NCBI GenBank assembly: GCA_973895155.1
Contig: OZ316898.1
Location: 15,902,330-15,966,329, forward strand
Reading direction: 5' to 3'
DNA: 64,000 nt
Source: Marsupella aquatica
Taxonomy: Eukaryota > Plantae > Marchantiophyta
In this document: in pieces, positions 9,405 through 47,650 of the stretch
Numbering within the stretch: position 1 is the stretch's first letter
How the letters are laid out: every line of letters begins with the position of its first letter
The notes under the pieces: model-generated
Told to the model about the DNA's origin: nothing
Seen by the model: the letters and a program-made list of their open reading frames with translations, nothing else
Database searches by the model: none
Made by a program: the position numbers and the translations under genes

Positions 9405-9524
9405 GAGCAGATAAATATTAATTCGAAGGAGAAAGAAGGAAACAAATGCAGGATGCTGCAAAAGTAACGGCTTATATACATATAAATGACAACACCGTTT
9501 GATATCTCTCATAAATGGTATCCT

Positions 9525-15400: not shown

Positions 15401-15573
15401 ATTGCTTTCTTGTATCATGACCCACTCCTTGTAAGTTGGCTTTCTTCCCTTCCGGTGGAAATTGTCAAAAGGGGCCACCAGAAGCTAATCCAGAATCCAC
15501 AACTGGATCAGATAGGTAAACCTCCAAATAGCGTACCTCCTCCAACTCAAACTCCAATGGCTCCAGAATCAGG
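12460..15573 (-). pseudogene. pol: Element A pol (RT, RNase H, integrase)
   Basis: LDGYSGYNQ, MPFGLCNAP, FIDD; RNase H EREAL; integrase H-H-C-C, WGIDF, SDRG, NGLTER, WIGPY; several stops and a frameshift. Confidence 0.95.
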
Positions 15574-18564: not shown

Positions 18565-19759
18565 CCCTCATTCTCCAAGCACGGGTGATTTTGAGACACC
18601 CGACCCGCTCCTCAGGAGTCTTTATGTAAGGAGTCATTATTTAGGTGCGACGTTATCACCCCACTCCGGGAGATATGAACCTGCTTCCTCAAAGTGACTT
18701 CCCGTAGCGTCGTTCAACATCCCTTGCATGATTCCTCCCCCTTGCTATCCCGTTCCCATAGCTAATACTTCCCTTCAGTGACCAGCCAAGATTCTAAAAC
18801 CTCGTTTTCCCTGGTGCGTCCCTCGGGTTGAGACGCGGAAAGGCACACCGGAAGCGTCGCACACGTTGGTTCATCACAGATTCCGCCGGACGCTGCTCAC
18901 AACGTCCACTGGGATTGGACGCTACTGGAAGCGTCCTGACTTGCGGAGTCTTCTGGGATGAATCGCATTTGACGCTCTTCGCAGCATCCTTCCTTATCTT
19001 GTCCTTACGGTGGCGATTACTGGAACCGGGCGTTCCCCATAATCTCCGACTTCCTACACCTTGAAATTTCTTTACCACATGGTACGCTACACTAGGCCAA
19101 TCAGGCGTCTATCTTCTTCCTAATCTTCTACACAATTCCTGGTGCATGATTCCTTCCGCTAACTCCCGAATGGAAATGACTAAATATCTCTCCTGTGTGA
19201 TCCTACCATTCAGCCTTAATATTACTAAATGCAAAATTTCATCTTTCCACCAGGTGATAGTTAACCAATGTATGCCATTCCTCCCTCTCAGGCTCAGAAC
19301 CCAAGAATTAACATAACAATTCCTCAAATTCCTAATTCTTAATGTTCCCAAAGATCGGATAGGTGGCATCGGTCACACGAACCAGGATGGTTGGACAATT
19401 TTACAAATCATACGTCCCGAGCAAAGTTATGATAACTTCACTTGTCACTCAAAGTGTCTTTGGTGTCTTCGACTGTCTCCAAAGCAACTTGACGAGCAAC
19501 AGCTCCTCTCTGTGAGGCCTTTTCTGGTGGGAGAGGGGTTTCTCCTCTTAAGTTTGGCACCACAAATTTTTCCAATACTCTTAAGAGAGCTTCCGGGGTG
19601 CTTTGGATAGAGTACGGCATCACCTCGAAATGGAAGCTCTTCATCTTTTTTAACTGCAATGATGACGCACCTTCACAATTATAGTAGAACGTGAATTCCT
19701 CTCCCGTCTAGCTCCTTCTAGCATACACTGCCTGTACGTCAATTCAATCTTAAATTCGT

Positions 19760-19777
19760 TCCCCGGCAGCAGCGCCA
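19760..19777 (-). other. Element A primer-binding site (tRNA-Asp/Athila type)
   Basis: TGGCGCTGCTGCCGGGGA just after the 5' LTR. Confidence 0.85.
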
Positions 19778-19783
19778 AAAAGA

Positions 19784-21139
19784 TGTCGTATAGTGCTAAG
19801 TATCAAAAGTGACTTTTCTCACCTAAAACCAGGGTTTCGATCCCTTTAAGAACAAATTTCAGAATGAATTGTATAACTTTTATCACTCTGAGTGATTTAG
19901 AGTCCTGAGCTCTATGCTGACTTCACTTTTCAACGAAAAAAATAAATAAACAAACAACCAAGTAACTGAACTTCTGATTTATGAATCAAAGAAGAAATGA
20001 GTAAGGATTTAGAGACTACAAGCTGCTACTGCCACTCCTTCAGAAAGGATTTGGACTCAGTATAGACATGAAATCTGTCTCATAATTCATCAATCTCACG
20101 TTTCAAAACACAAAGATTAATGATAATGGAATTCTCAATCTGATAAACTAGAAGCTTTCTGGTTGCAAATGAATGATATGATTTAAAATGCCGTCAACAT
20201 GGTTTGACATCGGCGATGCGCCATTCAGTCAAACTCTAAACCATATTCCAGAATCAAAGCAACGGTACTGACTACTCTGAGAATCAGAATTTACTTCTCA
20301 CTTATCATTAACTATTCTTGAATTGGCTAGCGAATCCTGACTCTGCAAGCAAGCCTAGCAGTGAATTCAATACGAGTTTCAGAAATCTGTAACTGAATTC
20401 AATCACCATAGGAATCTCTTGAATTCAATCTCAACTTCAATCAATACAGCTTTACTTCCATACAAAACACTCACAGCATGCCTTGTTACAATGGAAGGAG
20501 GAGGAAACTATTCAGAAGACTCAATTCTGAATACAGTATTAAGTCTATTTCTCTCTACTTCAAATGAGCACTCTACTCTGTCTTATAAATGCTGAAATCC
20601 AAAAATGGAGGAGGCAAGAACAGTCGTGCCTTTCCAAGCTTAAAACTAAACCAGGGAGAAGTACAGCATAAGTACTTCCAGGGTGGCAAAATACTACTCT
20701 ACTAGTAATCTACTTCAAAAACTAAGTCTAAGTGTCGAGCGGACGTTGTTAGAAGCGTCGTGAGTAGAAGCGGACGCTGCTGAAAGCGTCTTAAGTAAAA
20801 CCAACGGACGCTGCTCACAGCGTCAATACTAGGGTGGACGCTGCTCACAGCGTCGTGTGTTGAAGCGGACGCTTTCCAGAGCGTCGGTCGAAATCCTCAT
20901 AGAGTCTTGGTGGCAGTCGGACGCTGCTGAAAGCATCATGAGTAAAAGAAACGGACGCTTGTCACAGCATCGGGCAAAGTACACTAGGAATCGTCAGGAA
21001 AGCCGGAGATGTCAAATATTTCTATAAGTGTCCAGAACAAGTAAATGTTGGCCGGAGGCGTCTAAAGTGTAAGTAAATCTTGAGATATGCTAAAAATAAA
21101 CAAGTTTCCAGAAAAAATTGTAGGAACACCCATACCACA
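19784..21139 (-). repeat. Element A 5' LTR (1356 bp)
   Basis: Direct repeat of 7633-8958. Confidence 0.97.
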
Positions 21140-30170: not shown

Positions 30171-31454
30171 TATGGTGCGTCCCATGGCTCCCCAAACCCA
30201 AGAAACCCCCTGCGCAGGCCGATTCTCATAGGTTTCATCCTCAGCGAGGCCATTTCCGCGGCTTAGCGGCATGGGACGCTGCTAACCTCCTTCTACTACT
30301 ACTATTAACATTTTACACACATATACTGGACAGATCCTTCATCGGGTCATGAGATACGTAGCCGGCCTAATCTAGGCCTTCCCTTGTATTCCCCTCCTTT
30401 TCTTTAGGTATATTTGGATTCCGCCGCCGGAATGATCCCCAATTGGCTTGGTTAAGCCGCTAAGACCTCTCTCAGCTCGACACATCTAACTCTCACTCCC
30501 TTGCTTACTTCCCTTCATCTATTAGTTGACGTGTGTGGTGCGTCCCATGGCTCCCTAAACCCAAGAAACCCCCCAGCTCAAGCCGATTCCCGCAGGTTTC
30601 GTGCTTGGCGAGGCCGTTTCCGCGGCTTAGCGGCATGGGACGCTGCTAACTTTCTACTACTACTATTAACATTTTACACACATATACTAGACAGATCCTT
30701 CATCGGGTCATGAGATACGTAGCCGGCCTAATATAGGCCTTCCCCTGTCTTCCCCTGTCTTCCCCTCCGTCTTGTTAGGTATGTTTGGATTCCGCCACCG
30801 GAATGATCCCCAATAGGCTTGGTTAAGCCGCTAAGACCTCTCTCAGCTCGACACATCCAACTCTCACTCCCCTGCTTACTTTCCTTCCTTCTGTTGATGT
30901 GGGCACTCTTCACACAAGTTAATGCGACACACAAATAGCAAAATGACTCATTCTGACTGAGTCATACCATGCACTTGCCATACAAACAGTACATCTCATA
31001 CACAAGTTCTGCGAACTAAGCCGTGAGGCCAACTCTATTCAGCTCTTAGGCATGAGGAAACATGAATATACACAAGGGTCACTGTATGACTAACCGAGAG
31101 CTTCTCGTACTACTTGATCCCAGCCCGGCTGGTGCAAACTAAAAACTTGCTAAAGAAGAGGCCCTGAGCTCCCCGCTGCCCAGGTACTTATCCTGGTAGT
31201 GGATCCGCCATTCTTTGCATCGTAAGCCTAATCTACTTAACAGTAATCTACTTGCCCAAATCTACCTATGTACAGCAAGGCAGGAGCACAAGTGTTGCTC
31301 CTACCAGTGGGACCGCAATCCCACTAAGCTAAGTGTCAGGGCCGCTCCTGGTTCTGATCCTAATCCTAAACGTGGAGATCCGCGCCCGCCCTGCCCACTC
31401 ACGCCTCCTCCCTCCACGTCCGCCCTCCCTAAAAGGAACGGCGCCCTTGCACCG

Positions 31455-33087
31455 TCACGACACCGGTGGTGGATCCTTAATGGACGCCCCCAACGCTTCC
31501 TCCTCAGCCACTGCCGTAGGTTCATTCTCTGACAGATTACCTGCCCTTGACTGAGTCAACTCTCCATCGGCCTGACTGGGTCCACCTTCGGCTTCAGCCT
31601 CGACACCGGCCTCGGCAATACCCACGGCTTCGGCCTCAGCCACTCCCTCGGCTTCGGCCTCCCCTTCCCCTAGGGTAGTTGGATCCCTAGCCGTGATCCT
31701 GTCTGGGGTCGGTGCTGGGTCTACCTCCTTGATCACCACGGCCTGTGAAGTCGTATTACTCCTTGACCCTGAAGGTTTCCGCTTCTTCTTCGTTGGTGGC
31801 TTGGCAGCTGGTCCCTTCCCCTTCCCACTTACTTCCGGCACTGGTGCAGGTGGCGCGGCTTGTCCTTCGGCAATTACCACCCCTGGTAACTGGTTTGTCC
31901 CAACGGGAGATGGACCTGCTGCAGCTAAGCATTTAAATACTGCGGCTTGTTTCTTCAGCCGCTCTGTTTGGTTGTCGGCCCGCCGCTGTAGGTTCTCCAT
32001 CTTCCTCGTGATTTCCTCCAACTCCTCTTGGGTTTCATCCAGGTCCTTACGTGCCCCCTCCAGCTCGTTTTTGGCCTCCTCCTGCTCCCTGTGGGCTTCC
32101 TCCAATTCCTTCTTCAAGGTAGCCCTCTCCTCCTGGGTTGCTCTTAGCTCCTTGTCGAGCTCTGCAATGATGACAGACTCCATCTGGTTCATCTTGGCGT
32201 AAGTCTGTTCGAGCATCTCGTCCTTCTCCCTTAGGTCGGCCTTGAAGCTGGCCGTCAGGGACGCAAGCTCCTGCTGCAGCGCCATAATCCCTTGATAGGA
32301 TTTTCCTAACTCGACCTCCTTCTGCTCAAGGGCTCCGCGGATTTTCTCGAGCTCCCCTTTCAACGCCCATTCCTTTCTTTGGGTCTCCGCCATGGCCCGG
32401 CTGTTGGCTGTTATGTGGGCCTCCTCTGTATTCTTCAGCTCTTGCTTCCACTTCTCCCTCTCTTTGATCGTGTCGGCCAACTCTTCTTGCGTCTGAGTCA
32501 GTTTATCCTTGATATTCTGATTATCAGCCTGCGCGGTGTCCAACTGCCCCTGCATGATGTTCAGCTCATGTCGTTTAATCCGCAGTTCATCTTGGGCTTT
32601 CTTGGCCGCCCTTAGATCTTCAATCTCGGCTTCCATCCTCCTAAGCCGCCGAATGACCTCGTCCTTCTTGCTTCTCTCTAAAGCCACCGCTTCTTCCTAA
32701 ACCCTAAACCCTAAACCCTAAACCCTAAACCCTAAACCCTAATTGGTGCTTCTCCAACTGCTCCCTATGGAAAAAGGGTCCTACCTCCAACTCCTCTCCA
32801 AAGATGCCGAGCGCAAGTTCCCCACACATCTCACCATACTCCATGGCTCTATTCTTAGCGTAGGTGGAGTAAGTAGAAGTGATCGGCATCGCCCATCGTG
32901 GCCTCTGCTCCCAAGCCGTCCTGCGGATCTCTTCAATCGTGGCTAGAGGTTTGCTTCCTTTTTCGGCTAGCCGCCTGATGTCCTCCGGCCAATCTCCTCC
33001 TGGTAAATCCTTTTCCTTAGCCAGGGCGGCCTCCTCCTCCTGCTTGATTCGCTCCTGAAATTCTTGCACCGTCTGTTTTATGCCGTC
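31455..33087 (-). pseudogene. Duplicated C-terminal part of the LTR ORF
   Basis: 31492-33087 repeats 33113-34665; broken by a 43-bp telomeric insert. Confidence 0.9.
32697..32739 (+). repeat. Interstitial telomeric repeat (CCCTAAA)~6
   Basis: Absent at the equivalent position in other LTR copies. Confidence 0.97.
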
Positions 33088-33114
33088 CCTAAACCCTAAA
33101 CCCTAAACCCTAAA
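33087..33114 (+). repeat. Interstitial telomeric repeat (CCCTAAA)4 at the duplication junction
   Basis: Read directly. Confidence 0.97.
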
Positions 33115-36100
33115 CGCTTCCTCCTCAGCCACTGCCGTAGGTTCATTCTCTGACAGATTACCTGCCCTTGACTGAGTCAACTCTCCATCGGCCTGACTGG
33201 GTCCACCTTCGGCTTCAGCCTCAACACCGGCCTCGGCAATACCCACGGCTTCGGCCTCAGCCACTCCCTCGGCTTCGGCCTCCCCTTCCCCTAGGGTAGT
33301 TGGATCCCTAGCCGTGATCCTGTCTGGGGTCGGTGCTGGGTCTACCTCCTTGATCACCACGGCCTGTGAAGTCGTATTACTCCTTGACCCTGAAGGTTTC
33401 CGCTTCTTCTTCGTTGGTGGCTTGGCAGCTGGTCCCTTCCCCTTCCCACTTACTTCCGGCACTGGTGCAGGTGGCGCGGCTTGTCCTTCGGCAATTACCA
33501 CCCCTGGTAACTGGTTTGTCCCAACGGGAGATGGACCTGCTGCAGCTAAGCATTTAAATACTGCGGCTTGTTTCTTCAGCCGCTCTGTTTGGTTGTCGGC
33601 CCGCCGCTGTAGGTTCTCCATCTTCCTCGTGATTTCCTCCAACTCCTCTTGGGTTTCATCCAGGTCCTTACGTGCCCCCTCCAGCTCGTTTTTGGCCTCC
33701 TCCTGCTCCCTGTGGGCTTCCTCCAATTCCTTCTTCAAGGTAGCCCTCTCCTCCTGGGTTGCTCTTAGCTCCTTGTCGAGCTCTGCAATGATGACAGACT
33801 CCATCTGGTTCATCTTGGCGTAAGTCTGTTCGAGCATCTCGTCCTTCTCCCTTAGGTCGGCCTTGAAGCTAGCCGTCAGGGACGCAAGCTCCTGCTGCAG
33901 CGCCATAATCCCTTGATAGGATTTTCCTAACTTGACCTCCTTCTGCTCAAGGGCTCCGCGGATTTTCTCGAGCTCCCCTTTCAACGCCCATTCCTTTCTT
34001 TGGGTCTCCGCCATGGCCCGGCTGTTGGCTGTTATGTGGGCCTCCTCTGTATTCTTCAGCTCTTGCTTCCACTTCTCCCTCTCTTTGATCGTGTCGGCCA
34101 ACTCTTCCTGCGTCTGAGTCAGTTTATCCTTGATATTCTGATTATCAGCCTGCGCGGTGTCCAACTGCCCCTGCATGATGTTCAGCTCATGTTGTTTAAT
34201 CCGCAGTTCATCTTGGGCTTTCTTGGCCGCCCTTAGATCTTCAATCTCGGCTTCCATCCTCCTAAGCCGCCGAATGACCTCGTCCTTCTTGCTTCTCTCT
34301 AAAGCCACCGCTTCTTCTAATTGGTGCTTCTCCAACTGCTCCCTATGGAAAAAGGGTCCTACCTCCAACTCCTCTCCAAAGATGCCGAGCGCAAGTTCCC
34401 CACACATCTCACCATACTCCATGGCTCTATTCTTAGCGTAGGTGGAGTAAGTAGAAGTGATCGGCATCGCCCATCGTGGCCTCTGCTCCCAAGCCGTCCT
34501 GCGGATCTCTTCAATCGTGGCTAGAGGTTTGCTTCCTTTTTCGGCTAGCCGCCTGATGTCCTCCGGCCAATCTCCTCCTGGTAAATCCTTTTCCTTAGCC
34601 AGGGCAGCCTCCTCCTCCTGCTTGATTCGCTCCTGAAATTCTTGCACCGTCTGTTTTATGCCGTCAAAGCTCGGGGGAGCAACATCTGGTGGGGGAGACT
34701 CAGGGCTACTCTGCTGGTTGGGGTCCCCTCGCACTACCCTTGGAAGTGTGGGGACAAACCGGCCACAGGTCCTTACTCCTGGAACGTGATGGTCCGACCC
34801 ATAGCCGGAATTATCATGGCTGCAGTCCTCCACTGCCTCCTGTACCTCTTGGACGTCCGGCTTCTCCCTCTCCTCTTCGTCGGTAGGAGCTTTAGGCAAT
34901 TCTGCCTCAGATTCGGAGCTTGAGGTTCCCACGTACATTCGAACACCTGGCTTGGATTCCGGCCTGATTCTCTCCTTGTCTCCAGCAAAGGGGTTTTCTC
35001 TTGTGAGCCGGTGTAGGCCTACCTCTGTAGTAGTGTCCTGCATTGTTGCCGTTGCCGTTGTTGTTGCCGATGCCGATTTCTTTTCTTTCTCGAGTAGTTT
35101 CAGCAGACTCTGCATGCCTGGTTGCTGCATCGGCAAGTCTTCCTTCCTGGGCCTAAACACCTGCTCGATCGTAGGACTAACAGGTGGTTGAGGCTTCTCA
35201 GCCAACGGCCTCGGCGTTGGAGCTTCCTCGGGTGCCCTTACCTGCAGGGGAAGTACCGGGGCAAAAGTCTGACCTCTGGCATACCGGCACAACAGCGGCA
35301 TGTGATAGCCAAGCCGCGACACGCTCCCCATGCCGATTACCTGCTGCTCCTCCTTTAAGATCTTCTTCAATTGGTTGAGGAGGTACCCGTTGTAGTCCCG
35401 GCTTGGGTCTGGCCTTTCTGCCAGATAGACCTGTGCCTTGCCGATCTCTGCCCTCGGCAAGTTACAATGCATGGTCACCCGCAAGAAGTCGATCATCTCT
35501 CCTATGTGCGGGTTGGTGCAGGTGTTCCGGAAGAAGCCATTCTTCGTTGATGGCCCGGGGAACGACCGGAACTCCTTGTCAGGCAAGGTCTTCCTGGTAT
35601 CAACTTTGGTCTTATTGCCTATCGGCAAGCCAAACACTTCGGCAATTACCTTGGGAGTAAGATAGAAATCCTTCCCATATATCCTCGTGCAATTGGTCTC
35701 GGGTTCCCATGACCCCACGAATTCTAATAGGTCTGACTCCGGTACCTCCGGCTTCAGCCATGGTAATCTTACAAAGGCCTCTAAGCCGGATCCGGCCATG
35801 AAGCCTTGGTACTTCTTGGTCTGCATGGCCGTAAAGCATGCATCCTCCTCCCGTGCAAAATGTAGTTGCACCTCCACCGGTAGGGTTGCCGCCCAGCCCT
35901 TCCAGGTGTCATCCCTGGTTGGAATGGCCTTGATGGGATCGACCTCCTCCTCTTCGGCTTCTCCCTGCCTCCTGCTCTGCTGCTCGGCTGGCCTCTTTGG
36001 TGCCGCCGACCTCGTTCTTTTTGCCGGGGTGGCTTCATCGTTGACGGCCCCCTTCCTCTTCATCTCTGCTGCCGTGGAGGTTTCTCCTAGCACCGTTGCC

Positions 36101-36675
36101 TGGGTCCACCTTTTCGTGCTACCCTTTAATTCCCAGTGTATGTCGTTGCAGTTCTTGATGGCCTCTCGGATGCCGACGACGCTGTCTTTGCAAAACAGAA
36201 GATCGTCGAGTTGATTGGAAGTAGGCGTCCACAGGAACTCGTCCTTGATGAGTTCGCCTCCTAAGAAAGCCGTCTTCTGCAGCTCCCACAATCGAGCGAG
36301 CTCCTGCCGTTCTCGAGCTGCCCTTTCTGACTCCTCGTCCTCGTAAGTCTTGATGTACTCAGTTGCCCGTTCGAACAGGCATCCCCAGAAATGTGCCGCT
36401 TGATTGACGTTGCTCATACCCTCCTTAGGTCGATCGTCGGTATCTATTCTCTCCCCGAGTGCTTGCCTAAGCAGCTGACAGTAGTTGGCCTCCCGTAGTC
36501 GTCTGCCTAGTTCGTGCTCGCAAATGAGCCACCATCTCCTGCAAGCGCTCCTTACCCCTCTCCTCTGCCGGTCCTTCTTCCCGTTGATCCTTCCTAGCCG
36601 CCGACGCTTAACGCGCCCTAATCCTAATCGGGTTTTCACCCTCAGCCTTACCTCCGGCCTCTGCCCGGGTTCCAT
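33103..36675 (-). CDS. 3' LTR copy of the LTR-encoded protein (1190 aa, ends in telomeric repeat)
   Basis: Near-identical to 43936-47535. Confidence 0.88.
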   Translation of the reverse strand: MEPGQRPEVRLRVKTRLGLGRVKRRRLGRINGKKDRQRRGVRSACRRWWLICEHELGRRLREANYCQLLRQALGERIDTDDRPKEGMSNVNQAAHFWGCLFERATEYIKTYEDEESERAARERQELARLWELQKTAFLGGELIKDEFLWTPTSNQLDDLLFCKDSVVGIREAIKNCNDIHWELKGSTKRWTQATVLGETSTAAEMKRKGAVNDEATPAKRTRSAAPKRPAEQQSRRQGEAEEEEVDPIKAIPTRDDTWKGWAATLPVEVQLHFAREEDACFTAMQTKKYQGFMAGSGLEAFVRLPWLKPEVPESDLLEFVGSWEPETNCTRIYGKDFYLTPKVIAEVFGLPIGNKTKVDTRKTLPDKEFRSFPGPSTKNGFFRNTCTNPHIGEMIDFLRVTMHCNLPRAEIGKAQVYLAERPDPSRDYNGYLLNQLKKILKEEQQVIGMGSVSRLGYHMPLLCRYARGQTFAPVLPLQVRAPEEAPTPRPLAEKPQPPVSPTIEQVFRPRKEDLPMQQPGMQSLLKLLEKEKKSASATTTATATMQDTTTEVGLHRLTRENPFAGDKERIRPESKPGVRMYVGTSSSESEAELPKAPTDEEEREKPDVQEVQEAVEDCSHDNSGYGSDHHVPGVRTCGRFVPTLPRVVRGDPNQQSSPESPPPDVAPPSFDGIKQTVQEFQERIKQEEEAALAKEKDLPGGDWPEDIRRLAEKGSKPLATIEEIRRTAWEQRPRWAMPITSTYSTYAKNRAMEYGEMCGELALGIFGEELEVGPFFHREQLEKHQLEEAVALERSKKDEVIRRLRRMEAEIEDLRAAKKAQDELRIKQHELNIMQGQLDTAQADNQNIKDKLTQTQEELADTIKEREKWKQELKNTEEAHITANSRAMAETQRKEWALKGELEKIRGALEQKEVKLGKSYQGIMALQQELASLTASFKADLREKDEMLEQTYAKMNQMESVIIAELDKELRATQEERATLKKELEEAHREQEEAKNELEGARKDLDETQEELEEITRKMENLQRRADNQTERLKKQAAVFKCLAAAGPSPVGTNQLPGVVIAEGQAAPPAPVPEVSGKGKGPAAKPPTKKKRKPSGSRSNTTSQAVVIKEVDPAPTPDRITARDPTTLGEGEAEAEGVAEAEAVGIAEAGVEAEAEGGPSQADGELTQSRAGNLSENEPTAVAEEEAFRV

Positions 36676-36778
36676 GGTTGCCCCTAATTGTTTATATTTT
36701 CCTTGTTTTGTCCCTATACTAAGGTGTTCCTAGGGTGCCTTCCTGCTTTACCCACTTAACCGGCCGAGTGATTCCTGT

Positions 36779-39700
36779 CTAGGCATCACATAGCTCCCCA
36801 CTTAATTGTGAAGCGTCCTCGCGAACAACTGCATCTTCGTCCATATAGTATTTCTTGAGGCGGTCATAATGGATGCGAACTGGATATACCTCTCCCGTAA
36901 TGTTGGCCAATTGTACGGAGCCATTGGGGAACATCATGGTTACTCTAAAGGGTCCTAACCAGCGAGTGTAAAGCTTTCCTGGAAACCTACTATACCTACT
37001 GTCATAAAGTAGCACAAGATCACCGGTATGAATACTAACTACTTTTAACCTTTTATCATACTACTGCTTCATGATATTCTGTCTATATTCTACTCTCTCG
37101 GCTGAAATCATTCTCGCTTCCTCTAAAGCTTCTAACCTATATTCTCGCTCCTTTAGGCTCTCCTCCGCTGAGGCTCTTTCCTCAATTGTAACTTGAAATG
37201 TCGGTATCTCAAGTTGCATGGGTACCAGGGCTTCTTGTCCAAAGGTTAAGAAGAAGGGTGTATGACCGGTAGTGGATTTATAGGCAAGATTGTAAGCAAA
37301 AACAGCAGCAAACAATTTATCATCCCAATCGAGTTTGTTCTGAGCTACTGTCTTGTTCAATATCTTTCCTATGATTCCGTTTGCTCGTTCTGTCAACCCG
37401 TTTGCCTTTGGATGGTAGGGAGTAGTAGGCCTATGTTTAACTAAATACTGCTCATTTAAATGACTAATTATATCATTCAAAAAATGGGTTCCTCTATCAC
37501 TAACTAATTCTAGGGGTGCTCCATACCTGGTGAAGATCTGCTCATACATGAATCTAGCCGTAGTAATTGCATCATCCTTCGTTGTTGGTCTGGCCTCTAC
37601 CCATTTAGTTGCATAATCCGTAGCCAGGATTATGTACTTGTTCCGTCGAGGGTGGGTCAGTGGTTTCAGAGGTCCAATGTAATCAATACCCCACTTCTCG
37701 AATGGTGCCAGAGGTAGAATAGGGTGCAGTGGATGCCTGGTGGACGCCCTTGGTCCTCCCGCTCGTTGATAAGGATCGCATTGTTTGATAAACTGATAGA
37801 CATCTTTGTGCAAGGTGGGCCACCAGTAACCGGCATTTAATATCTTCTTAGACGTGGTTACTGGGGCAAAATGTCCTCCGGCCTCCTCTCCATGCATGGC
37901 CCGTAGGACTCGTTTTACCTCTCTCTTTTCCAAACATCTTTGAATCGTGCCGTTGATTCCATGCTTGTGCAGTATGCCTTTAATGCACTGATACTGTCTG
38001 ACCTTCCACACAAAGACTGCGGCTTGCTCTCGGCTTAATCCTGGCTGTAATCTGGAAGTGCTGAGAAATTGTAAAATCTCAGGGTACCATGTACCAGCTA
38101 TTTCCACAACGAATAGCTCCTCGTCGGGGAATCGATCATCGATGCAATCCGTGGCAGGTTTACCTGTGATCCTTGAAAAGAAGTCGACATTGGCATGTAA
38201 CTTTCCCGGCTTGATCCTCAGCTCATAGTCAAACTCCTGTAATAGCAAAATCCATCTTGCTACTCTGCCTGTAAGGTCCGGCTTATTGACTAGGTACTTC
38301 AAACTTTCATGATCAGTATGAAAGATTACCTTGTACCCTAGTAAATAATGCCTAAACTTTTTACAAGAATAAATGACTCCTAATGCTTCTCTTTCCGTGG
38401 TAGAGTAGTTCCGTTCGGCATCGGCAAGCTGACGGCTTGCGAAGTATATGGGATGGTCCCTTCCTTTCTCATCCAACTGACTTAGTACTGAGCCAATACA
38501 GAAGCCCAAGACATCTACAAAAACATGAAAATCTTTGTTCCAGTCCGGTGCTATCATGACTGGGGCCTCTACTAACATCTGCTTCAATTCTACCACCGCT
38601 GTGACTCGTTCGGGTGTGGGTTCGAAGTCTGCTCCTGCCTTGAGCATATTGGTTAATGGTAAAGCCAGCTTGGCAAAATCCTTGATGAACCGGCGATAGT
38701 AACCAATGCATCCCAAGAAGGATCTTACATCCTTTATGTTCTTAGGTTGCATGATATCTAGCCATACTGCTAGCTTACCTTTGTCAATCTCAATGCCCTT
38801 CCTTGATACCTTGTGACCTAGTAGCACCCCCTCGGTTACTGCAAAAAAACATTTATCTGGGTGTAACTTGAGACCCACCTCTCTACATCTCATGAAGGTT
38901 TTCCTGAGGTATTTAGCATGTTTCGATGCCTTCCCGAATACTGCAAAGTCATCAATGAAGATTTCCATGAACTTTCTCAAGTAATCATGAAAAATGTTCA
39001 CCATTAATCGTTGGAACATAGCTGGTGCGTTGCAGAGTCCAAACGGCATACGATTGAAGACATAGATCCCCCATTCCGTGATGAAGGCCGTCTTGATTTG
39101 GTCTTCCTGCCGAATCCTGATTTGGTTATAACCAGAGTATCCATCCATGAATGAATATAGTTCATGACTGGCTACCATGTCTAGTACCATATCAGTAAAC
39201 GGTAAAGGAAAATGGTCTTTTAATGTTGCTTCATTCAGCTTCCTGTAATCCTGACAAACCCGGATCTTGGGTTTACCATCGGGTCCAGCTTTCTTGGGAA
39301 CTATCACAATTGGAGACACCCAGTCTGAATGCAGGACTGGAGTGATGAATCCAGCTTCCACTAGTTTGTCGATTTCTGTTTTGACCAGCAGGGAATACTT
39401 CGGGTTCATCCTTCGAATTGGTTGTCGAAATGATTTGGCTCCTAACATGAGATCAATTCGATGTTCCCCTAGTGTTGGATCTACTCCCTTTAGATCTTGG
39501 TGACTCCATGCAAACACATCCTGAAATTCAATCAATAAGTCACTGATCTCTTTCTCGAGCTCAGGTGCTAGGTTTCTCCCTAAGTTCAGTTCTCTTCCCT
39601 CTCCTAAGTCGAGCTTCCGATATTGCCGTGCTTGGATCATATTAATCTGCTTCTTCAAATTCGGGTCCAGTTCGGCTTCCAGTCTCTCTAATCTCATACC

Positions 39701-40045
39701 TCCATAAACTGGGATCTCGGCTGGACTAGCCGAGTCGGTCCCTTCCTTGGTGTCCATAGATTGTCCCCTTACCGGTCTATTCGGTTTTGAATTAATGGTC
39801 GGCTCCCCTTCCTGCCTTGGCTCTGGATCGTGTCTGTCCATCTCATCCACTTCTTGCTCCTGAGAGTTAGGCCGTTGTGCTCTCTCGGCTTCTAATAGGG
39901 CCTCAATTTGTTCTGCCCTCGTAATCGGCTTGTATGCCGATCCCTTGGTATTTAATTCCTTGCCGATGATCGATGGCGTTGTGGACCCCGTCGGCTCTGC
40001 CACAACGCCTGCAGAAAATCCACTGTCCCTGCTACTGCTCCCCAC
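36779..40045 (-). CDS. pol: Element C pol (RT-RH-INT), -1 frame to gag, one premature stop at 37061
   Basis: MDGYSGYNQ, FIDD, EREAL, WGIDY, SDRG, NGLTER; WLGPF tail in frame after the stop and reading into the 3' LTR. Confidence 0.95.
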
Positions 40046-42945
40046 TTAGTCGTTTCATCCAATTGGTCTACATCCTTTACTTCCTCCGGAATTGCAGCTA
40101 AAAAGGTGGATTCTATTGTAAAGCAGTCCTCGACCTCTTCGTCTTCTTCTTCCAAGTCACCTTCCATTGGTTCTTGCCATAATCCGCTGGGGGGTACCTC
40201 TGGTCCAAAGACACCTTCTTCGGTTAGGTTAGTGAGGCATTCTAACCAACGTACTTCATCGGCTGACTCCAGTCCACTGTCGTACCCATCTACTTCCCTT
40301 ATGCTTTTCCTACGGTCATCCTTAGTGTCCCAGGATACCGTGATAGAGGGGGTCCCGAAAGTGAACTGCTTTTTACCCCAATCTTCTATTACCTCGGCTA
40401 GGTACAGCCATGGCCTACCAATCAATAGCCGGAATGACGTAGGATTTACCGGCTTCATTACTACATAGTTAATGCTAAAGAAGATACCTCCTATCTCTGT
40501 CTTGATGCCGGTTAACACTCCCGTCGGAATGACCTGATATCCATTGGCCATGTTCAACACTCTTCCAGTCATCTCCGGTGTTAGACCCCACCCTTTTGCT
40601 GTTGAATCAATCATAATACATACCCCTGATCCTCCATCGATGGGTACCCGTAGTAATAATTCTCCTTGAATCATTAATGGTAATGCTGGGGCTCCTTGAT
40701 CTTCTTCTATCATTAGTACGTCGGATCTGGTTGCTACCTTGGGTAATCTCGGCTTGCCGAGAATAGCCTTCCTTAATTGCTTCCGGAAGTACGGGCTATT
40801 TTTCAATAGTTGACCTACTGTTGCCGAGACTCTAGATTCTAGTACATCTTTAGCCAGGTCATAGGGAACAATCGGCTTCTCTTCTAGTGGTGTTTCCGTC
40901 TTGGATTCGGCCAGTTTTGCCACGCTAGTCTCCACAGCTGTTGGGTCTTCCAAAGCAAACAATGCTTTTGCTCGTTTTACATCCTTGGCAATGGCTTCGG
41001 TATTCTCCAGGGTTTCTAATTCTCTTAGTTGTTCCTTAACACTAGTCGTAACAGAGGGGTAGAACAACTTAGGATGATCTCGATTGAAGTCGCTATCTTG
41101 TGAAGGATTGGTTTCACTGGTGGGCTCATGGCTTACCTGTATTGCCGGAGCCCTCCCTTCTCCTTCTGTTGATGTTGACGAAGAGTCGATCCTTTCCTCC
41201 GTAACCTTCCCTTTATTTTTGGCCAGCCCATCCCACCTTTCCTTCCTTCTGGTAGATCGAGTAGAGACCCGGTAGCAATCATGATCTAAATCCTCCTCTG
41301 AGAAGGTTGATAGGGCTTCGGCCTCATCATCAGATGGTACGAACTCTGCCTCGGCATCCTCTTGCCATCCTAGTTCGATGTGGTTGATTTGAACTCCTCC
41401 GGGGGTAGTACCTGGCGGTAAGATCTTGATCGGCAAAAGCTTATGATTTGCGGCCAGGCCTGCCAACCAAGTAGGACATTGCCCTAGCATATGACCTTCC
41501 TGTCGGCATCCCATACATAGCTGAGCTGGTTGTCCATCACCCTGTTTGCGTGCATTCGGGCATTCTCTAGCAAAATGGCCAGGTTGACCACAATTATAGC
41601 ACGCCGCAAATCTTTGCACATTCGGCCTAGGAGGTACTGACGGGTTCTGAATAATCCGAGGATACATCTCTCCTGGATTGTTCCTTAACCCTGACCACAG
41701 AGATGCAGGTCTGTTGGATAGGTCTCGTGCTCCAGTCTCACTGATGCCGAAAACACTATCAGCGGCATCTCCCAAAAAGTACTCTACTTCTCCCTGACAT
41801 GGTCTGATCTCGGCCACATGCCGAACATGATTAGTATTAAGCTTAGGACACGCATCTTTATGGTGTCCGGTTTTATAACATAAGGCACACCATACAGAGC
41901 TATCCTCCTGTACTACCTTCTTCTTTGGTTTTACCTCTGCAATGATAGCCTTAAGTTGCTCGGTAAGGGCTACGATGTTATCTGGTGGCTTAGCCTCCAT
42001 CTTGACTTTCGTCTTCCCTCTCCTTCTGCCCTTCCTTTTCCTAGTTTTTTCTTCTTCAGAACTAGAAGATGACTCACTCTTGCTACTCCCACTATCCGAG
42101 CTTGACTTATCACTTCTAGACTTCTTGGGATGTTTCTTCTTCTTATCTTTTTTCTTATGGGGTGATCCCTCCTCTGATGAGGAACTCTCAGACTTAAGCT
42201 GTTTCTTCCGGCTTGTGATATCTGCATTAATGTATAATTGAATATCCTTAATTGCTTCGGCTAAAGTCTCCGGGTTCTCCTTCCTAATTGCAAAACTCAT
42301 CTTCTGTGGCAAAGCATTCACCAACCATTGAAGTTGCATACCTTCAGATGCATTGGTCTTTGTACGTCTTACCAGTTTCTGAAAGCGTTGCAAGAACTTC
42401 CTGAAGGATTTGTTCTCCTTGAACCGAAGTTGTCCCAACTTCAGCACTGCTAGTTCTGAAGTTCCAATGGGTCGAAACTCCTTAACAAAGAGTGTTTTGA
42501 AGATATCCCAGATGGCTTGATCTTCCACATCTAATGCTCTATACCAAGGCCTAGCCTCACCCTTGAACAGGCCGGGAAGAATCTGCATCTTGATGGCCGA
42601 TTCTCCATTTGCTGCAGCGGTTCCCTCGAAATCATCCAACCATTCGTCCGGATCCTCATCTCCTCTCCCATGAAATGCCTTGTAATGTATGCGCGACCGC
42701 TGGCTCAATCTGGTCCCTGGCCTCTCGTCTGGCCGTGCCTCTGGTTCCCCCATGTCGGTTGGAGACTCACTTCTCCTTACCGACTCTTCTTCTGGTATGT
42801 CTTCTTCGACGCCACTTCCAGTTTTGGAGCTACCAGCTCTTTCTGCCCCTCTCAGTCGCTGTGTATCATGCCACCCGGCGAGCTGCTGCAGTCGAGCTCT
42901 CTCCCGTTGAATCACTCTTTCTTCCCTCGGCGTAAGGTCAGTCAT
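39952..42945 (-). CDS. gag: Element C gag-protease (997 aa)
   Basis: Intact ORF; three CCHC knuckles; VPIDGGSGV...LIGRPWL. Confidence 0.95.
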   Translation of the reverse strand: MTDLTPREERVIQRERARLQQLAGWHDTQRLRGAERAGSSKTGSGVEEDIPEEESVRRSESPTDMGEPEARPDERPGTRLSQRSRIHYKAFHGRGDEDPDEWLDDFEGTAAANGESAIKMQILPGLFKGEARPWYRALDVEDQAIWDIFKTLFVKEFRPIGTSELAVLKLGQLRFKENKSFRKFLQRFQKLVRRTKTNASEGMQLQWLVNALPQKMSFAIRKENPETLAEAIKDIQLYINADITSRKKQLKSESSSSEEGSPHKKKDKKKKHPKKSRSDKSSSDSGSSKSESSSSSEEEKTRKRKGRRRGKTKVKMEAKPPDNIVALTEQLKAIIAEVKPKKKVVQEDSSVWCALCYKTGHHKDACPKLNTNHVRHVAEIRPCQGEVEYFLGDAADSVFGISETGARDLSNRPASLWSGLRNNPGEMYPRIIQNPSVPPRPNVQRFAACYNCGQPGHFARECPNARKQGDGQPAQLCMGCRQEGHMLGQCPTWLAGLAANHKLLPIKILPPGTTPGGVQINHIELGWQEDAEAEFVPSDDEAEALSTFSEEDLDHDCYRVSTRSTRRKERWDGLAKNKGKVTEERIDSSSTSTEGEGRAPAIQVSHEPTSETNPSQDSDFNRDHPKLFYPSVTTSVKEQLRELETLENTEAIAKDVKRAKALFALEDPTAVETSVAKLAESKTETPLEEKPIVPYDLAKDVLESRVSATVGQLLKNSPYFRKQLRKAILGKPRLPKVATRSDVLMIEEDQGAPALPLMIQGELLLRVPIDGGSGVCIMIDSTAKGWGLTPEMTGRVLNMANGYQVIPTGVLTGIKTEIGGIFFSINYVVMKPVNPTSFRLLIGRPWLYLAEVIEDWGKKQFTFGTPSITVSWDTKDDRRKSIREVDGYDSGLESADEVRWLECLTNLTEEGVFGPEVPPSGLWQEPMEGDLEEEDEEVEDCFTIESTFLAAIPEEVKDVDQLDETTKWGAVAGTVDFLQALWQSRRGPQRHRSSARN

Positions 42946-43014
42946 TACCTACGCTTCCGTTCTAACTTCATATCTCACGGCTTAAGAAATGCCCCCTCCA
43001 TCTAGCGCCAAAAA

Positions 43015-46000
43015 TGTGGTGCGTCCCATGGCTCCCTAAACCCAAGAAACCCCCCAGCTCAAGCCGATTCCCGCAGGTTTCGTGCTTGGCGAGGCCGTTT
43101 CCGCGGCTTAGCGGCATGGGACGCTGCTAACTTTCTACTACTACTATTAACATTTTACACACATATACTGGACAGATCCTTCATCGGGTCATGAGATACG
43201 TAGCCGGCCTAATATAGGCCTTCCCCTGTCTTCCCCTGTCTTCCCCTCCGTCTTGTTAGGTATGTTTGGATTCCGCCGCCGGAATGATCCCCAATAGGCT
43301 TGGTTAAGCCGCTAAGACCTCTCTCAGCTCGACACATCCAACTCTCACTCCCCTGCTTACTTTCCTTCCTTCTGTTGATGTGGGCACTCTTCACACAAGT
43401 TAATGCGACACACAAATAGCAAAATGACTCATTCTAACTGAGTCATACCATGCACTTGCCATACAAACAGTACATCTCATACACAAGTTCTGCGAACTAA
43501 GCCGTGAGGCCAACTCTATTCAGCTCTTAGGCATGAGGAAACATGAATATACACAAGGGTCACTGTATGACTAACCGAGAGCTTCTCGTACTACTTGATC
43601 CCAGCCCGGCTGGTGCAAACTAAAAACTTGCTAAAGAAGAGGCCCTGAGCTCCCCGCTGCCCAGGTACTTATCCTGGTAGTGGATCCGCCATTCTTTGCA
43701 TCGTAAGCCTAATCTACTTAACAGTAATCTACTTGCCCAAATCTACCTATGTACAGCAAGGCAGGAGCACAAGTGTTGCTCCTACCAGTGGGACCGCAAT
43801 CCCACTAAGCTAAGTGTCAGGGCCGCTCCTGGTTCTGATCCTAATCCTAAACGTGGAGATCCGCGCCCGCCCTGCCCACTCACGCCTCCTCCCTCCACGT
43901 CCGCCCTCCCTAAAAGGAACGGCGCCCTTGCACCGTCACGACACCGGTGGTGGATCCTTAATGGACGCCCCCAACGCTTCCTCCTCAGCCACTGCCGTAG
44001 GTTCATTCTCTGACAGATTACCTGCCCTTGACTGAGTCAACTCTCCATCGGCCTGACTGGGTCCACCTTTGGCTTCAGCCTCGACACCGGCCTCGGCAAT
44101 ACCCACGGCTTCGGCCTCAGCCACTCCCTCGGCTTCGGCCTCCCCTTCCCCTAGGGTAGTTGGATCCCTAGCCGTGACCCTGTCTGGGGTCGGTGCTGGG
44201 TCTACCTCCTTGATCACCACGGCCTGTGAAGTCGTATTACTCCTTGACCCTGAAGGTTTCCGCTTCTTCTTCGTTGGTGGCTCGGCAGCTGGTCCCTTCC
44301 CCTTCCCACTTACTTCCGGCACTGGTGCAGGTGGCGCGGCTTGTCCTTCGGCAATTACCACCCCTGGTAACTGGTTTGTCCCAACGGGAGATGGACCTGC
44401 TGCAGCTAAGCATTTAAATACTGCGGCTTGTTTCTTCAGCCGCTCTGTTTGGTTGTCGGCCCGCCGCTGTAGGTTCTCCATCTTCCTCGTGATTTCCTCC
44501 AACTCCTCTTGGGTTTCATCCAGGTCCTTACGTGCCCCCTCCAGCTCGTTTTTGGCCTCCTCCTGCTCCCTGTGGGCTTCCTCCAATTCCTTCTTCAAGG
44601 TAGCCCTCTCCTCCTGGGTTGCTCTTAGCTCCTTGTCGAGCTCTGCAATGATGACAGACTCCATCTGGTTCATCTTGGCGTAAGTCTGTTCGAGCATCTC
44701 GTCCTTCTCCCTTAGGTCGGCCTTGAAGCTGGCCGTCAGGGACGCAAGCTCCTGCTGCAGCGCCATAATCCCTTGATAGGATTTCCCTAACTCGACCTCC
44801 TTCTGCTCAAGGGCTCCGCGGATTTTCTCGAGCTCCCCTTTCAACGCCCATTCCTTTCTTTGGGTCTCCGCCATGGCCCGGCTGTTGGCTGTTATGTGGG
44901 CCTCCTCTGTATTCTTCAGCTCTTGCTTCCACTTCTCCCTCTCTTTGATCGTGTCGGCCAACTCTTCCTGCGTCTGAGTCAGTTTATCCTTGATATTCTG
45001 ATTATCAGCCTGCGCGGTGTCCAACTGCCCCTGCATGATGTTCAGCTCATGTCGTTTAATCCGCAGTTCATCTTGGGCTTTCTTGGCCGCCCTTAGATCT
45101 TCAATCTCGGCTTCCATCCTCCTAAGCCGCCGAATGACCTCGTCCTTCTTGCTTCTCTCTAAATCCACCGCTTCTTCTAATTGGTGCTTCTCCAACTGCT
45201 CCCTATGGAAAAAGGGTCCTACCTCCAACTCCTCTCCAAAGATGCCGAGCGCAAGTTCCCCACACATCTCACCATACTCCATGGCTCTATTCTTAGCGTA
45301 GGTGGAGTAAGTAGAAGTGATCGGCATCGCCCATCGTGGCCTCTGCTCCCAAGCCGTCCTGCGGATCTCTTCAATCGTGGCTAGAGGTTTGCTTCCTTTT
45401 TCGGCTAGCCGCCTGATGTCCTCCGGCCAATCTCCTCCTGGTAAATCCTTTTCCTTAGCCAGGGCGGCCTCCTCCTCCTGCTTGATTCGCTCCTGAAATT
45501 CCTGCACCGTCTGTTTTATGCCGTCGAAGCTCGGGGGAGCAACATCTGGTGGGGGAGACTCAGGGCTACTCTGCTGGTTGGGGTCCCCTCGCACTACCCT
45601 TGGAAGTGTGGGGACAAACCGGCCACAGGTCCTTACTCCTGGAACGTGATGGTCTGACCCATAGCCGGAATTATCATGGCTGCAGTCCTCCACTGCCTCC
45701 TCTACCTCTTGGACGTCCGGCTTCTCCCTCTCCTCTTCGTCGGTAGGAGCTTCAGGCAATTCTGCCTCAGATTTGGAGCTTGAGGTTCCCACGTACATTC
45801 GAACACCTGGCTTGGATTCCGGCCTGATTCTCTCCTTGTCTCCAGCAAAGGGGTTTTCTCTTGTGAGCCGGTGTAGGCCTACCTCTGTAGTAGTGTCCTG
45901 CATTGTTGCCGTTGCCGTTGTTGTTGCCGATGCCGATTTCTTTTCTTTCTCCAGTAGTTTCAGCAGACTCTGCATGCCTGGTTGCTGCATCGGCAAGTCT

Positions 46001-47650
46001 TCCTTCCTGGGCCTAAACACCTGCTCGATCGTAGGACTAACAGGTGGTTGAGGCTTCTCAGCCAACGGCCTCGGCGTTGGAGCTTCCTCGGGTGCCCTTA
46101 CCTGCAGGGGAAGTACCGGGGCAAAAGTCTGACCTCTGGCATACCGGCACAACAGCGGCATGTGATAGCCAAGCCGCGACACGCTCCCCATGCCGATTAC
46201 CTGCTGCTCCTCCTTTAAGATCTTCTTCAATTGGTTGAGGAGGTACCCGTTGTAGTCCCGGCTTGGGTCTGGCCTTTCTGCCAGATAGACCTGTGCCTTG
46301 CCGATCTCTGCCCTCGGCAAGTTACAATGCATGGTCACCCGCAAGAAGTCGATCATCTCTCCTATGTGCGGGTTGGTGCAGGTGTTCCGGAAGAAGCCAT
46401 TCTTCGTTGATGGCCCGGGGAACGACCGGAACTCCTTGTCAGGCAAGGTCTTCCTGGTATCAACTTTGGTCTTATTGCCTATCGGCAAGCCAAACACTTC
46501 GGCAATTACCTTGGGAGTAAGATAGAAATCCTTCCCATATATCCTCGTGCAATTGGTCTCGGGTTCCCATGACCCCACGAATTCTAATAGGTCTGACTCC
46601 GGTACCTCCGGCTTCAGCCATGGTAATCTTACAAAGGCCTCTAAGCCGGATCCGGCCATGAAGCCTTGGTACTTCTTGGTCTGCATGGCCGTAAAGCATG
46701 CATCCTCCTCCCGTGCAAAATGTAGTTGCACCTCCACCGGTAGGGTTGCCGCCCAGCCCTTCCAGGTGTCATCCCTGGTTGGAATGGCCTTGATGGGATC
46801 GACCTCCTCCTCTTCGGCTTCTCCCTGCCTCCTGCTCTGCTGCTCGGCTGGCCTCTTTGGTGCCGCCGACCTCGTTCTTTTTGCCGGGGTGGCTTCATCG
46901 TTGACGGCCCCCTTCCTCTTCATCTCTGCTGCCGTGGAGGTTTCTCCTAGCACCGTTGCCTGGGTCCACCTTTCCGTGCTACCCTTTAATTCCCAGTGTA
47001 TGTCGTTGCAGTTCTTGATGGCCTCTCGGATGCCGACGACGCTGTCTTTGCAAAACAGAAGATCGTCGAGTTGATTGGAAGTAGGCGTCCACAGGAACTC
47101 GTCCTTGATGAGTTCGCCTCCTAAGAAAGCCGTCTTCTGCAGCTCCCACAATCGAGCGAGCTCCTGCCATTCTCGAGCTGCCCTTTCTGACTCCTCGTTC
47201 TCGTAAGTCTTGATGTACTCAGTTGCCCGTTCGAACAGGCATCCCCAGAAATGTGCCGCCTGATTGACGTTGCTCATACCCTCCTTAGGTCGATCGTCGG
47301 TATCTATTCTCTCCCCGAGTGCTTGCCTAAGCAGCTGACAGTAGTTGGCCTCCCGTAGTCGTCTGCCTAGTTCGTGCTCGCAAATGAGCCACCATCTCCT
47401 GCAAGCGCTCCTTACCCCTCTCCTCTGCCGGTCCTTCTTCCCGTTGATCCTTCCTAGCCGCCGACGCTTAACGCGCCCTAACCCTAATCGGGTTTTCACC
47501 CTCAGCCTTACCTCCGGCCTCTGCCCGGGTTCCATGGTTGCCCCTAATTGTTTATATTTTCCTTGTTTTGTCCCTATACTAAGGTGTTCCTAGGGTGCCT
47601 TCCTGCTTTACCCACTTAACCGGCCGAGTGATTCCTGTCTAGGCATCACA
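43015..47650 (-). repeat. Element C 5' LTR (4636 bp)
   Basis: Bounded by PBS and TSD. Confidence 0.96.
43936..47535 (-). CDS. LTR-encoded 1199-aa protein: basic N-terminus, PMD-like domain, long coiled coil, NLS-like KKKRK
   Basis: Intact ORF; EFVGSWEPETNCTRIYGKDFYLTPKVIAEVFGLPIG resembles the PMD core LVERWRPETHTFHL..GEMTITL.DV..LLGLP. Confidence 0.88.
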   Translation of the reverse strand: MEPGQRPEVRLRVKTRLGLGRVKRRRLGRINGKKDRQRRGVRSACRRWWLICEHELGRRLREANYCQLLRQALGERIDTDDRPKEGMSNVNQAAHFWGCLFERATEYIKTYENEESERAAREWQELARLWELQKTAFLGGELIKDEFLWTPTSNQLDDLLFCKDSVVGIREAIKNCNDIHWELKGSTERWTQATVLGETSTAAEMKRKGAVNDEATPAKRTRSAAPKRPAEQQSRRQGEAEEEEVDPIKAIPTRDDTWKGWAATLPVEVQLHFAREEDACFTAMQTKKYQGFMAGSGLEAFVRLPWLKPEVPESDLLEFVGSWEPETNCTRIYGKDFYLTPKVIAEVFGLPIGNKTKVDTRKTLPDKEFRSFPGPSTKNGFFRNTCTNPHIGEMIDFLRVTMHCNLPRAEIGKAQVYLAERPDPSRDYNGYLLNQLKKILKEEQQVIGMGSVSRLGYHMPLLCRYARGQTFAPVLPLQVRAPEEAPTPRPLAEKPQPPVSPTIEQVFRPRKEDLPMQQPGMQSLLKLLEKEKKSASATTTATATMQDTTTEVGLHRLTRENPFAGDKERIRPESKPGVRMYVGTSSSKSEAELPEAPTDEEEREKPDVQEVEEAVEDCSHDNSGYGSDHHVPGVRTCGRFVPTLPRVVRGDPNQQSSPESPPPDVAPPSFDGIKQTVQEFQERIKQEEEAALAKEKDLPGGDWPEDIRRLAEKGSKPLATIEEIRRTAWEQRPRWAMPITSTYSTYAKNRAMEYGEMCGELALGIFGEELEVGPFFHREQLEKHQLEEAVDLERSKKDEVIRRLRRMEAEIEDLRAAKKAQDELRIKRHELNIMQGQLDTAQADNQNIKDKLTQTQEELADTIKEREKWKQELKNTEEAHITANSRAMAETQRKEWALKGELEKIRGALEQKEVELGKSYQGIMALQQELASLTASFKADLREKDEMLEQTYAKMNQMESVIIAELDKELRATQEERATLKKELEEAHREQEEAKNELEGARKDLDETQEELEEITRKMENLQRRADNQTERLKKQAAVFKCLAAAGPSPVGTNQLPGVVIAEGQAAPPAPVPEVSGKGKGPAAEPPTKKKRKPSGSRSNTTSQAVVIKEVDPAPTPDRVTARDPTTLGEGEAEAEGVAEAEAVGIAEAGVEAEAKGGPSQADGELTQSRAGNLSENEPTAVAEEEALGASIKDPPPVS

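Follow-up and report, generated by a model that had tools for sequence, protein, structure and literature searches.

We examined a 64,000-nucleotide stretch of contig OZ316898.1 (assembly GCA_973895155.1, positions 15,902,330 to 15,966,329 of the forward strand; below, the window) from the liverwort Marsupella aquatica, which holds a Ty3/gypsy retrotransposon whose long terminal repeats (LTRs) are filled for the most part by one long open reading frame (ORF). The element was delimited by comparing the window with itself, and it is laid out as follows, together with a solo LTR of the same family.

47650-30534, minus strand: whole Ty3/gypsy element (the main element)
43015..47650, minus strand: 5' LTR, 4636 bp, TG..CA
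43936..47535, minus strand: ORF inside the LTR, 1199 aa counted from its first ATG, or 1113 aa if Met87 (47277) is the start
43015..43935, minus strand: non-coding LTR tail, 921 bp; a TGT-rich tract resembling a 3' untranslated region, then the presumed ancestral promoter, R and U5
42993..43010, minus strand: primer-binding site (PBS), TGGCGCTAGA..., starting with TGG, 4 nt behind the 5' LTR
39952..42945, minus strand: gag-protease ORF, 997 aa; Retrotrans_gag and zf-CCHC (Pfam), protease motif seen by eye
36779..40048, minus strand: pol frame with reverse transcriptase, RNase H plus integrase (Pfam), finishing 12 nt inside the 3' LTR
36791..36805, minus strand: polypurine tract (PPT), at the very end of pol and abutting the 3' LTR
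30534..36790, minus strand: 3' LTR, 6257 bp, including a 1621-bp internal duplication
33103..36675, minus strand: ORF copy in the 3' LTR, 1190 aa, with altered C-terminal residues
49600..54235, minus strand: solo LTR, 4636 bp, with the same limits, a perfect TTCCC duplication and no PBS

The limits of the LTR are well fixed. On the minus strand the 5' LTR begins with TGTG and finishes with CACA, the PBS and PPT lie at its inner edges, and the outer flanks of the element, ACGTG and ATGTG, are identical at 4/5 positions, as in a 5-bp target-site duplication (TSD). A preliminary description of this sequence had drawn the same limits from the same marks and had set a 1199-aa ORF within them; both hold, the ORF (47535-43936) starting 115 bp inside the LTR and covering 3600/4636 bp, or 78%. 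The sag gene of mouse mammary tumour virus (MMTV) and the nef gene of human immunodeficiency virus (HIV) are ORFs in or overlapping U3, of ~320 and 206 aa, and the liverwort ORF lies wholly within the LTR, as a U3 ORF of that type does. The internal region codes for gag, protease, reverse transcriptase, RNase H and, last, integrase, in the Ty3 order. Because the pol frame, which runs through the PPT apart from a stop at 37063, extends into the 3' LTR, no internal room is left for a third ORF; the LTR-borne ORF starts only ~100 nt past pol, yet on the LTR side of the PPT. An exact 12-nt copy of the PPT at the overlap of the gag-protease and pol frames (40036-40047, minus strand) is a possible central PPT.

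This copy is young, its two LTRs differing at 22 positions over 4636 bp. Three statements of the preliminary description about gene copies hold in part. That the ORF is open in both LTRs is borne out by the 1190-aa frame of the 3' LTR, but there only 1188 residues match and the last 11 are replaced; a second C-terminal part lies behind. The pol stop, which had been set against the open ORF, exists, but contigs of 4/4 public runs compared carry a different letter at 37063 at full depth: the stop is private to this element copy and says nothing on its own. The solo LTR retains the ORF sequence between perfect TTCCC duplications, but its gene is broken, with stops at codons 121, 124, 170, 563 and 842 and one frameshift, at an overall divergence of 7.2%.

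Several other related sequences surround these copies. The duplication in the 3' LTR is complex (32701-33112), a 349-bp block bounded by 25-38 bp of filler, as expected from repair of a break after insertion. The element is nested in the remnant of an older LTR from its own family (30170-30533, 47651-47969 and 48400-49093), in which the ORF end is likewise joined to the tail (48400-49093), and another related LTR end lies at window positions 1-309 (plus strand). Insertion into repeats of the same family may reflect targeting or local density. Beside the solo LTR lies a third ORF of this family (54295-55314, plus strand; independent E-value (iE) 5.2e-9), into whose 5' end the solo LTR appears to have inserted.

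The decayed solo copy allowed us to measure selection on the ORF. Over 1161 codons the non-synonymous rate (dN) is 0.056 and the synonymous rate (dS) 0.19, a ratio of 0.29 (p 1e-21), falling to 0.12 in residues 231-480. In a context test, the 285 substitutions were re-placed randomly on sites of equal base and CG/CHG context in 2000 trials; 131/285 observed differences are synonymous, against 82 +/- 7.5 expected, a number reached in 0/2000 shuffles. The context-corrected dN/dS is ~0.48 for the whole ORF and 0.22 in the domain (2/2000 shuffles). The ratio between copies, a comparison proposed beforehand in the preliminary description, is by neither measure near 1: the ORF is a real gene and has been under purifying selection. 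The LTR tail differs from that of the solo LTR by 4%, against the ORF dS of 0.19. We also considered host-level selection on this particular copy and rejected it, with 9/19 synonymous differences between the 5' and 3' LTRs (P 0.15 after context matching). Fifteen ORF differences listed in contigs, a small selected subset, divide into 7 synonymous and 8 not.

Selection is not evident at the very start of the frame. Codons 1-87 hold 2 synonymous and 10 non-synonymous differences and codons 88-230 hold 15 and 12, a contrast (p 0.014-0.04; 0.014 with 3 stops dropped) that was drawn post hoc and concerns 12 changes. Since codons 1-87 are without synonymous excess, translation may start at Met87.

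The LTR-borne arrangement looks family-wide. We summed contig depth from public runs, a measure that is not copy number, one of the runs (X1) possibly being the source sample. In X1 and X2, the two runs tallied out of four, depth rises at the LTR edge and stays high over the ORF: the median ORF/internal ratio is 3.5 and 3.8, the tail/internal ratio 4.5 and 3.9, and the lowest ORF bin exceeds the highest internal bin in each. We read this only as a hint that in most copies the ORF goes with the LTR. In a further run (X14) only the conserved domain reaches the depth of the tail, which fits a diverged subfamily, other layouts being possible. Among the joints listed (15/211 and 15/33), none links the PPT directly to the LTR tail, as in a short-LTR variant; none joins the gag leader to the ORF start in a splice-like manner either, which in contigs is uninformative either way. 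Loose ends at the LTR start in two runs (X7 and X12) proved to belong to other families.

The origin of this layout is suggested by a second element in the same window, in which the homologous ORF, here called ORF3, is internal.

7633..21139, minus strand: element 2, Athila-like, with 1.3-kb LTRs, a GTCCC duplication and ORF3 internal
12446..12459, minus strand: upstream PPT of element 2, just past the pol stop
11562..12059, minus strand: ORF3 domain of element 2, broken by stops, between two PPTs

The upstream PPT of element 2 is a 14-nt exact match to its 3' PPT (8961-8974), and both resemble the PPT of the main element. The ORF3 domain was found at iE 3.6e-7 by a profile from which the other ORFs of the window had been left out, and a reversed control of this search gave no match. 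Between the upstream PPT and ORF3 lies a motif cluster like that of the element 2 LTR. The motif, a palindromic GACGC..GCGTC, reaches 5.6-20.5/kb in the leader, in each LTR and in the 390-bp spacer that separates pol from ORF3, against 0-1.3/kb in gag, pol and ORF3; the clusters resemble Sirevirus repeats and form a candidate target array for an ORF3 product of the fold described below. The PBS of element 2 agrees at 16/18 nt with the Athila-type PBS as given in the accessible text of PMC2844528. Among 20 related loci, one (L001; integrase identity 64%) shares with the main element the junction of pol stop, PPT and TGTG, its sequence ending ~80 bp into the LTR.

The PPT sets where U3 begins. 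The ancestor of the main element would have been arranged as pol-PPT1-ORF3-PPT2-LTR, a layout still found in element 2; priming at PPT1 and loss of PPT2 would have joined all sequence downstream of pol to U3. Because the PPT sets the start of U3, such an upstream move of priming would make ORF3 part of the LTR, and once within U3 it would be copied to both ends in every replication round. The two elements show what appear to be the before and after states of one PPT switch within one window. A starting point of this kind is known in that an additional PPT lies in the pol-env linker of Athila4 and Calypso, according to the accessible part of PMC2829016.

Two regions of the encoded protein stand out.

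46081..46806, minus strand: conserved domain, aa 244-485, with a predicted VANC21/PMD-type fold
44401..45165, minus strand: proline-free, E/K/R/Q-rich stretch, aa ~790-1045; putative coiled coil, from composition and a weak match to Pfam ATG16

That weak coiled-coil match is the only one Pfam gives for the ORF. Besides the domain, the protein has an acidic/proline linker, the proline-free charged stretch of ~250 residues and a basic KKKRK motif resembling a nuclear localization signal (NLS); a transmembrane segment, which would mark an env-like protein, is absent (top 19-residue hydropathy 0.82). A HMMER scan with residues 230-500 returned 22 relatives, and of 10 looked up the 4 that are named all come from the liverwort Calypogeia fissa. 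The alignment for folding consisted of 18 relatives and one window ORF, after three unrelated repeats (P0005, P0007, P0021) and one short sequence (P0019) had been dropped. The AlphaFold2 domain model has a predicted local distance difference test score (pLDDT) of 81 and a predicted TM-score (pTM) of 0.79; a single-sequence model, without the alignment, has pLDDT 35. Against 48,161 solved chains the model matched VANC21 in its complex with DNA (9lnk; Z 9.0, root-mean-square deviation (rmsd) 4.2, 210/242 residues aligned), the next-best chain reaching Z 2.1; a second VANC21 entry (9lnj) likewise gave Z 9.0, with rmsd 4.3. Foldseek gave VANC21 a query TM-score (TMq) of 0.48, against <=0.16 for the other rows listed, and ranked it second by E-value. 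Residues 244-485 are predicted on this basis to share the fold of Arabidopsis VANC21.

Other searches added little. Language-model neighbours belong to Transposase_32 and ATHILA clusters at 0.84-0.88, scores that, being below 0.9, are leads only. A sequence search of the PDB with the ORF protein gave no match, a comparison with viral structures no fold match, and word-based protein searches nothing new, returning one known protein; the domain was found in 0/57 candidates of a metagenome scan and in 0/20 integrase-related loci (best E 0.7).

VANC21 is encoded by VANDAL21, a Mutator-like DNA transposon of Arabidopsis, and is like the LTR-borne protein in being a transposon-encoded accessory protein with a coiled coil, as well as in the predicted fold over 210 residues; it differs in that the protein studied here belongs to a retrotransposon LTR in a non-seed plant. 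In the accessible parts of the sources, VANC strips methylation off its own transposons, its targets being frequently tandem repeats (PMC5735166); VANC resembles MAIN, and both VANC and Athila domains bear coiled coils (PMC13547354); and PMD-C resembles the DUF1985 domain of VANC, PMD-A being encoded by a retrotransposon (10.1101/2024.09.27.615353). With its VANC/PMD-type domain, acidic/proline linker, coiled coil of 250 residues and NLS-like motif, the product of the LTR-borne ORF would form a nuclear oligomer, predicted to act in trans on members of the family. The model thereby suggests an anti-silencing role, to which we give even chances.

The fold may instead serve another purpose, such as tethering integration to chromatin, scaffolding of the particle or its RNA, or binding of host proteins through the coiled coil. 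We regard this as the less probable choice, yet a substantial one: sequence identity to VANC21 is low, no motif array was seen in the LTR, the element and the solo LTR are each nested in older related elements, as targeting would have it, and many host contacts are predicted for accessory proteins of transposable elements (PMC13547354, accessible text). On the other side, the sole solved match is a DNA-bound anti-silencing protein, and the contrast of GACGC/GCGTC density between non-coding and coding parts of element 2, which has a homologous ORF, is what a VANC-type target system would show.

For expression of the gene, the head of the LTR holds one candidate promoter.

47551..47556, minus strand: TATAAA at LTR position 95, the sole one in the LTR and present in the solo LTR too; candidate ORF promoter

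RNA from this site would start just past the first ATG, in keeping with the absence of evident selection ahead of Met87. Within the first 87 codons there are also two TTAGGG units (47475-47487, minus strand) and two GTAAGG donor-like sites (LTR ~140 and 236); these too are kept in the solo LTR and look like leader or promoter sequence. A TATA-like site at 43216 was set aside, since three other copies do not share it. In Athila6A the ENV ORF has a promoter of its own, internal to the element, as stated in the accessible text of PMC4977677. A promoter of this kind, lying downstream of PPT1 and internal to the ancestor, would have been carried along into the LTR with ORF3. The LTR would then contain two units: an ORF transcript running from the head (TATAAA at 95, translated probably from Met87) and ending in the tail, and genomic RNA beginning in the 0.9-kb tail. 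With such a captured promoter the gene could be expressed from 5' and 3' LTRs and from fresh solo LTRs alike, to which, on the sequence evidence, we give slightly less than an even chance. The preliminary description had held that each insertion carries two gene doses and that solo-LTR formation leaves a working gene behind; both statements would require a promoter near the LTR head, within its first few hundred bases.

The chief competitor is capture into U3 without an LTR promoter, the gene being expressed from the 3' LTR alone, through an RNA that starts at the genomic promoter and is spliced or reads through. Copies in 5' and solo LTRs would then be silent passengers, leaving one gene dose and nothing working in solo LTRs. 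The short distance of 115 bp ahead of the first ATG and the decay of the solo copy both suit this route, which would be the one taken by Athila ORF2, HIV nef and MMTV sag. Overlapping the gag start (42948) there is a donor-like AGGTAATG, an acceptor candidate (TTAG/G) stands 9 nt ahead of the strong-context first ATG, and Athila ORF2 mRNA is spliced from full-length RNA (PMC7197481, accessible part). Yet the acceptor candidate is without a U-rich tract, and a single donor-like site is not special where the internal region holds 9 occurrences of AGGT(A/G)A; codons 1-87 are without synonymous excess, and the sole TATAAA is placed to start RNA beyond the first ATG. We hold expression from the 3' LTR alone to be somewhat unlikely.

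Still less probable is a single head promoter that drives the genomic RNA as well. U3 would then measure ~120 bp and a 4-kb R (or U5) would hold the ORF, so that genomic RNA would be terminally redundant by 4 kb with the ORF as its first cistron. The lone TATAAA, the inconstancy of the site at 43216 and the TGT-rich tract after the ORF stop would agree with this. From what is generally known of LTR replication, it would require minus-strand strong-stop DNA of 4.5 kb, read-through of a distant poly(A) site and translation of gag behind a 3.6-kb ORF, and the tail is as well conserved as a second promoter would be. On whether the ORF lies upstream of the genomic start, as a U3 ORF of the sag/nef type would, the signals in the sequence pull in both directions. 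Among these three routes of expression we favour the captured promoter, ahead of splicing from the 3' LTR and far ahead of a very long R. That the 4.6-kb repeat is no true LTR and arose as a duplication of 'ORF3 plus short LTR' by recombination or misassembly might be suspected from the nested region and the rearranged 3' LTR, but it is already contradicted by TG..CA ends, a PPT at the inner edge and a TSD at the outer edges, by the solo LTR, an independent copy 7% diverged that has identical limits and a perfect duplication of its own, and by ORF depth at LTR level in two studies.

Overall we lean towards a young Ty3/gypsy element whose LTR gene was likely captured by upstream-PPT priming and whose VANC21-like product likely binds DNA or chromatin against silencing. 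A number of points weigh against this interpretation. On the side of the fold, identity of the domain to VANC21 is 8-12%, the Foldseek E-value for VANC21 is 1.7, Z 9 is near chance level for helical domains, and Pfam DUF1985, PMD, ATHILA and Transposase_32 match neither the domain nor its 22 relatives. A common fold proves no function; MAIN/MAIL proteins with a VANC-type fold are host regulators. No repeated target-like motif array was found in the non-coding parts of this LTR, and no 6-9-mer exceeds 4 copies in the tail. TTAGG occurs at 9-13/kb in the LTR head and tail vs ~2/kb in coding DNA, and clear motif clusters are seen only in element 2. As to expression, the ORF transcript and its promoter are predictions from the sequence, the sole solo copy seen is a broken pseudogene, the first ATG is in strong context with codons 1-87 free of stops in both subfamilies, and the Met87 split is post hoc, resting on 12 changes. 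As to origin, the direction from internal to LTR was chosen by which layout is commoner rather than read off a rooted tree, and a PPT2-like remnant (43915, 20 nt past the ORF stop) is weak; it is the same in two LTRs and has 2 further changes in the solo and older copies. The fullest form of the interpretation, in which promoter, VANC-fold ORF and poly(A) site would together make the LTR an anti-silencing gene complete in itself and present in two doses per insertion, with fresh solo LTRs active in trans and Athila-type 'env-like' ORFs generally VANC-fold counter-silencers, we consider unlikely as a whole.

Among known systems the main element looks most like the Athila clade. It has the Ty3 domain order, a 5-bp TSD, a spaced PBS and a sense ORF after pol, and neither a chromodomain nor an additional RNase H was found in the Pfam scan of gag-protease and pol, with 94 post-stop codons checked by eye. 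The PPT after pol and the coiled coil are further likenesses, in so far as the accessible text of PMC2829016 (Athila4/Calypso) and PMC13547354 describes them. The differences, again by the accessible parts of the sources, are that the extra ORF is internal in Athila (PMC7264820, PMC6317226) and here is carried by both LTRs and the solo LTR, downstream of the PPT; that Athila LTRs measure 1-2 kb (10.64898/2026.03.20.713144) against 4.6 kb; and that the main element's PBS shares only its first 6 nt with the Athila-type PBS (PMC2844528), not being of the tRNA-Asp type. The liverwort protein has no membrane segment and no Pfam match to PF03078 (ATHILA ORF-1), to which the language-model comparison gives a lead at 0.84-0.87.

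The likeness to sag and nef is one of position: each gene stands behind the last gene needed for replication, within the LTR, and is for that reason doubled at both ends; the ORF here is ~4-6x longer, encodes an unrelated protein and belongs to a non-infectious plant element. A 2002 paper by Wright and Voytas reportedly may describe a single Athila4 'super-LTR' primed at the upstream PPT. In length the LTR falls into the class of Retrosat2, RIRE3 and RIRE8 (>3 kb) and Ogre-type elements (up to ~5 kb), but the extra ORF of such long-LTR plant elements lies upstream of gag-pol (PMC3485330, accessible part) and their LTRs are not described as coding in the accessible text of PMC6317226. OTA elements are known to have extra ORFs, including PMD and Athila ORF-1 domains, and LTRs to ~5 kb (PMC6317226), the ORFs sitting in the internal region (PMC7264820, PMC3485330), so far as the accessible text of these sources extends. 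Our literature search, with subscription papers mostly outside its coverage and supplements not covered, found no plant LTR family with a full ORF.

The rest of the window includes a Ty1/copia polyprotein (59808-64000, minus strand), open for 1396 aa and running past the window end, and ORFs of 150-330 aa without a Pfam match at 55878-56615 and 29271-30266 (plus strand) and at 27089-27658, 21600-22661 and 9036-10283 (minus strand), which are probably transposon pieces. A short tandem repeat array occupies 24896-25076.

We suggest that these observations bear on how retrotransposons gain and keep accessory genes. For the extra ORFs that Athila-type elements carry, the fold match to VANC21 offers a testable hypothesis of sequence-specific counter-silencing that could replace the doubtful 'env' label, and the pair of elements related by a PPT switch makes the gain of a gene by an LTR a question that can be tested. 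LTRs are seldom searched for ORFs, and genes in solo LTRs would be taken for host genes. Should the copy in the LTR come with a promoter of its own, the gene would survive solo-LTR formation, altering the cost and benefit of this deletion route.

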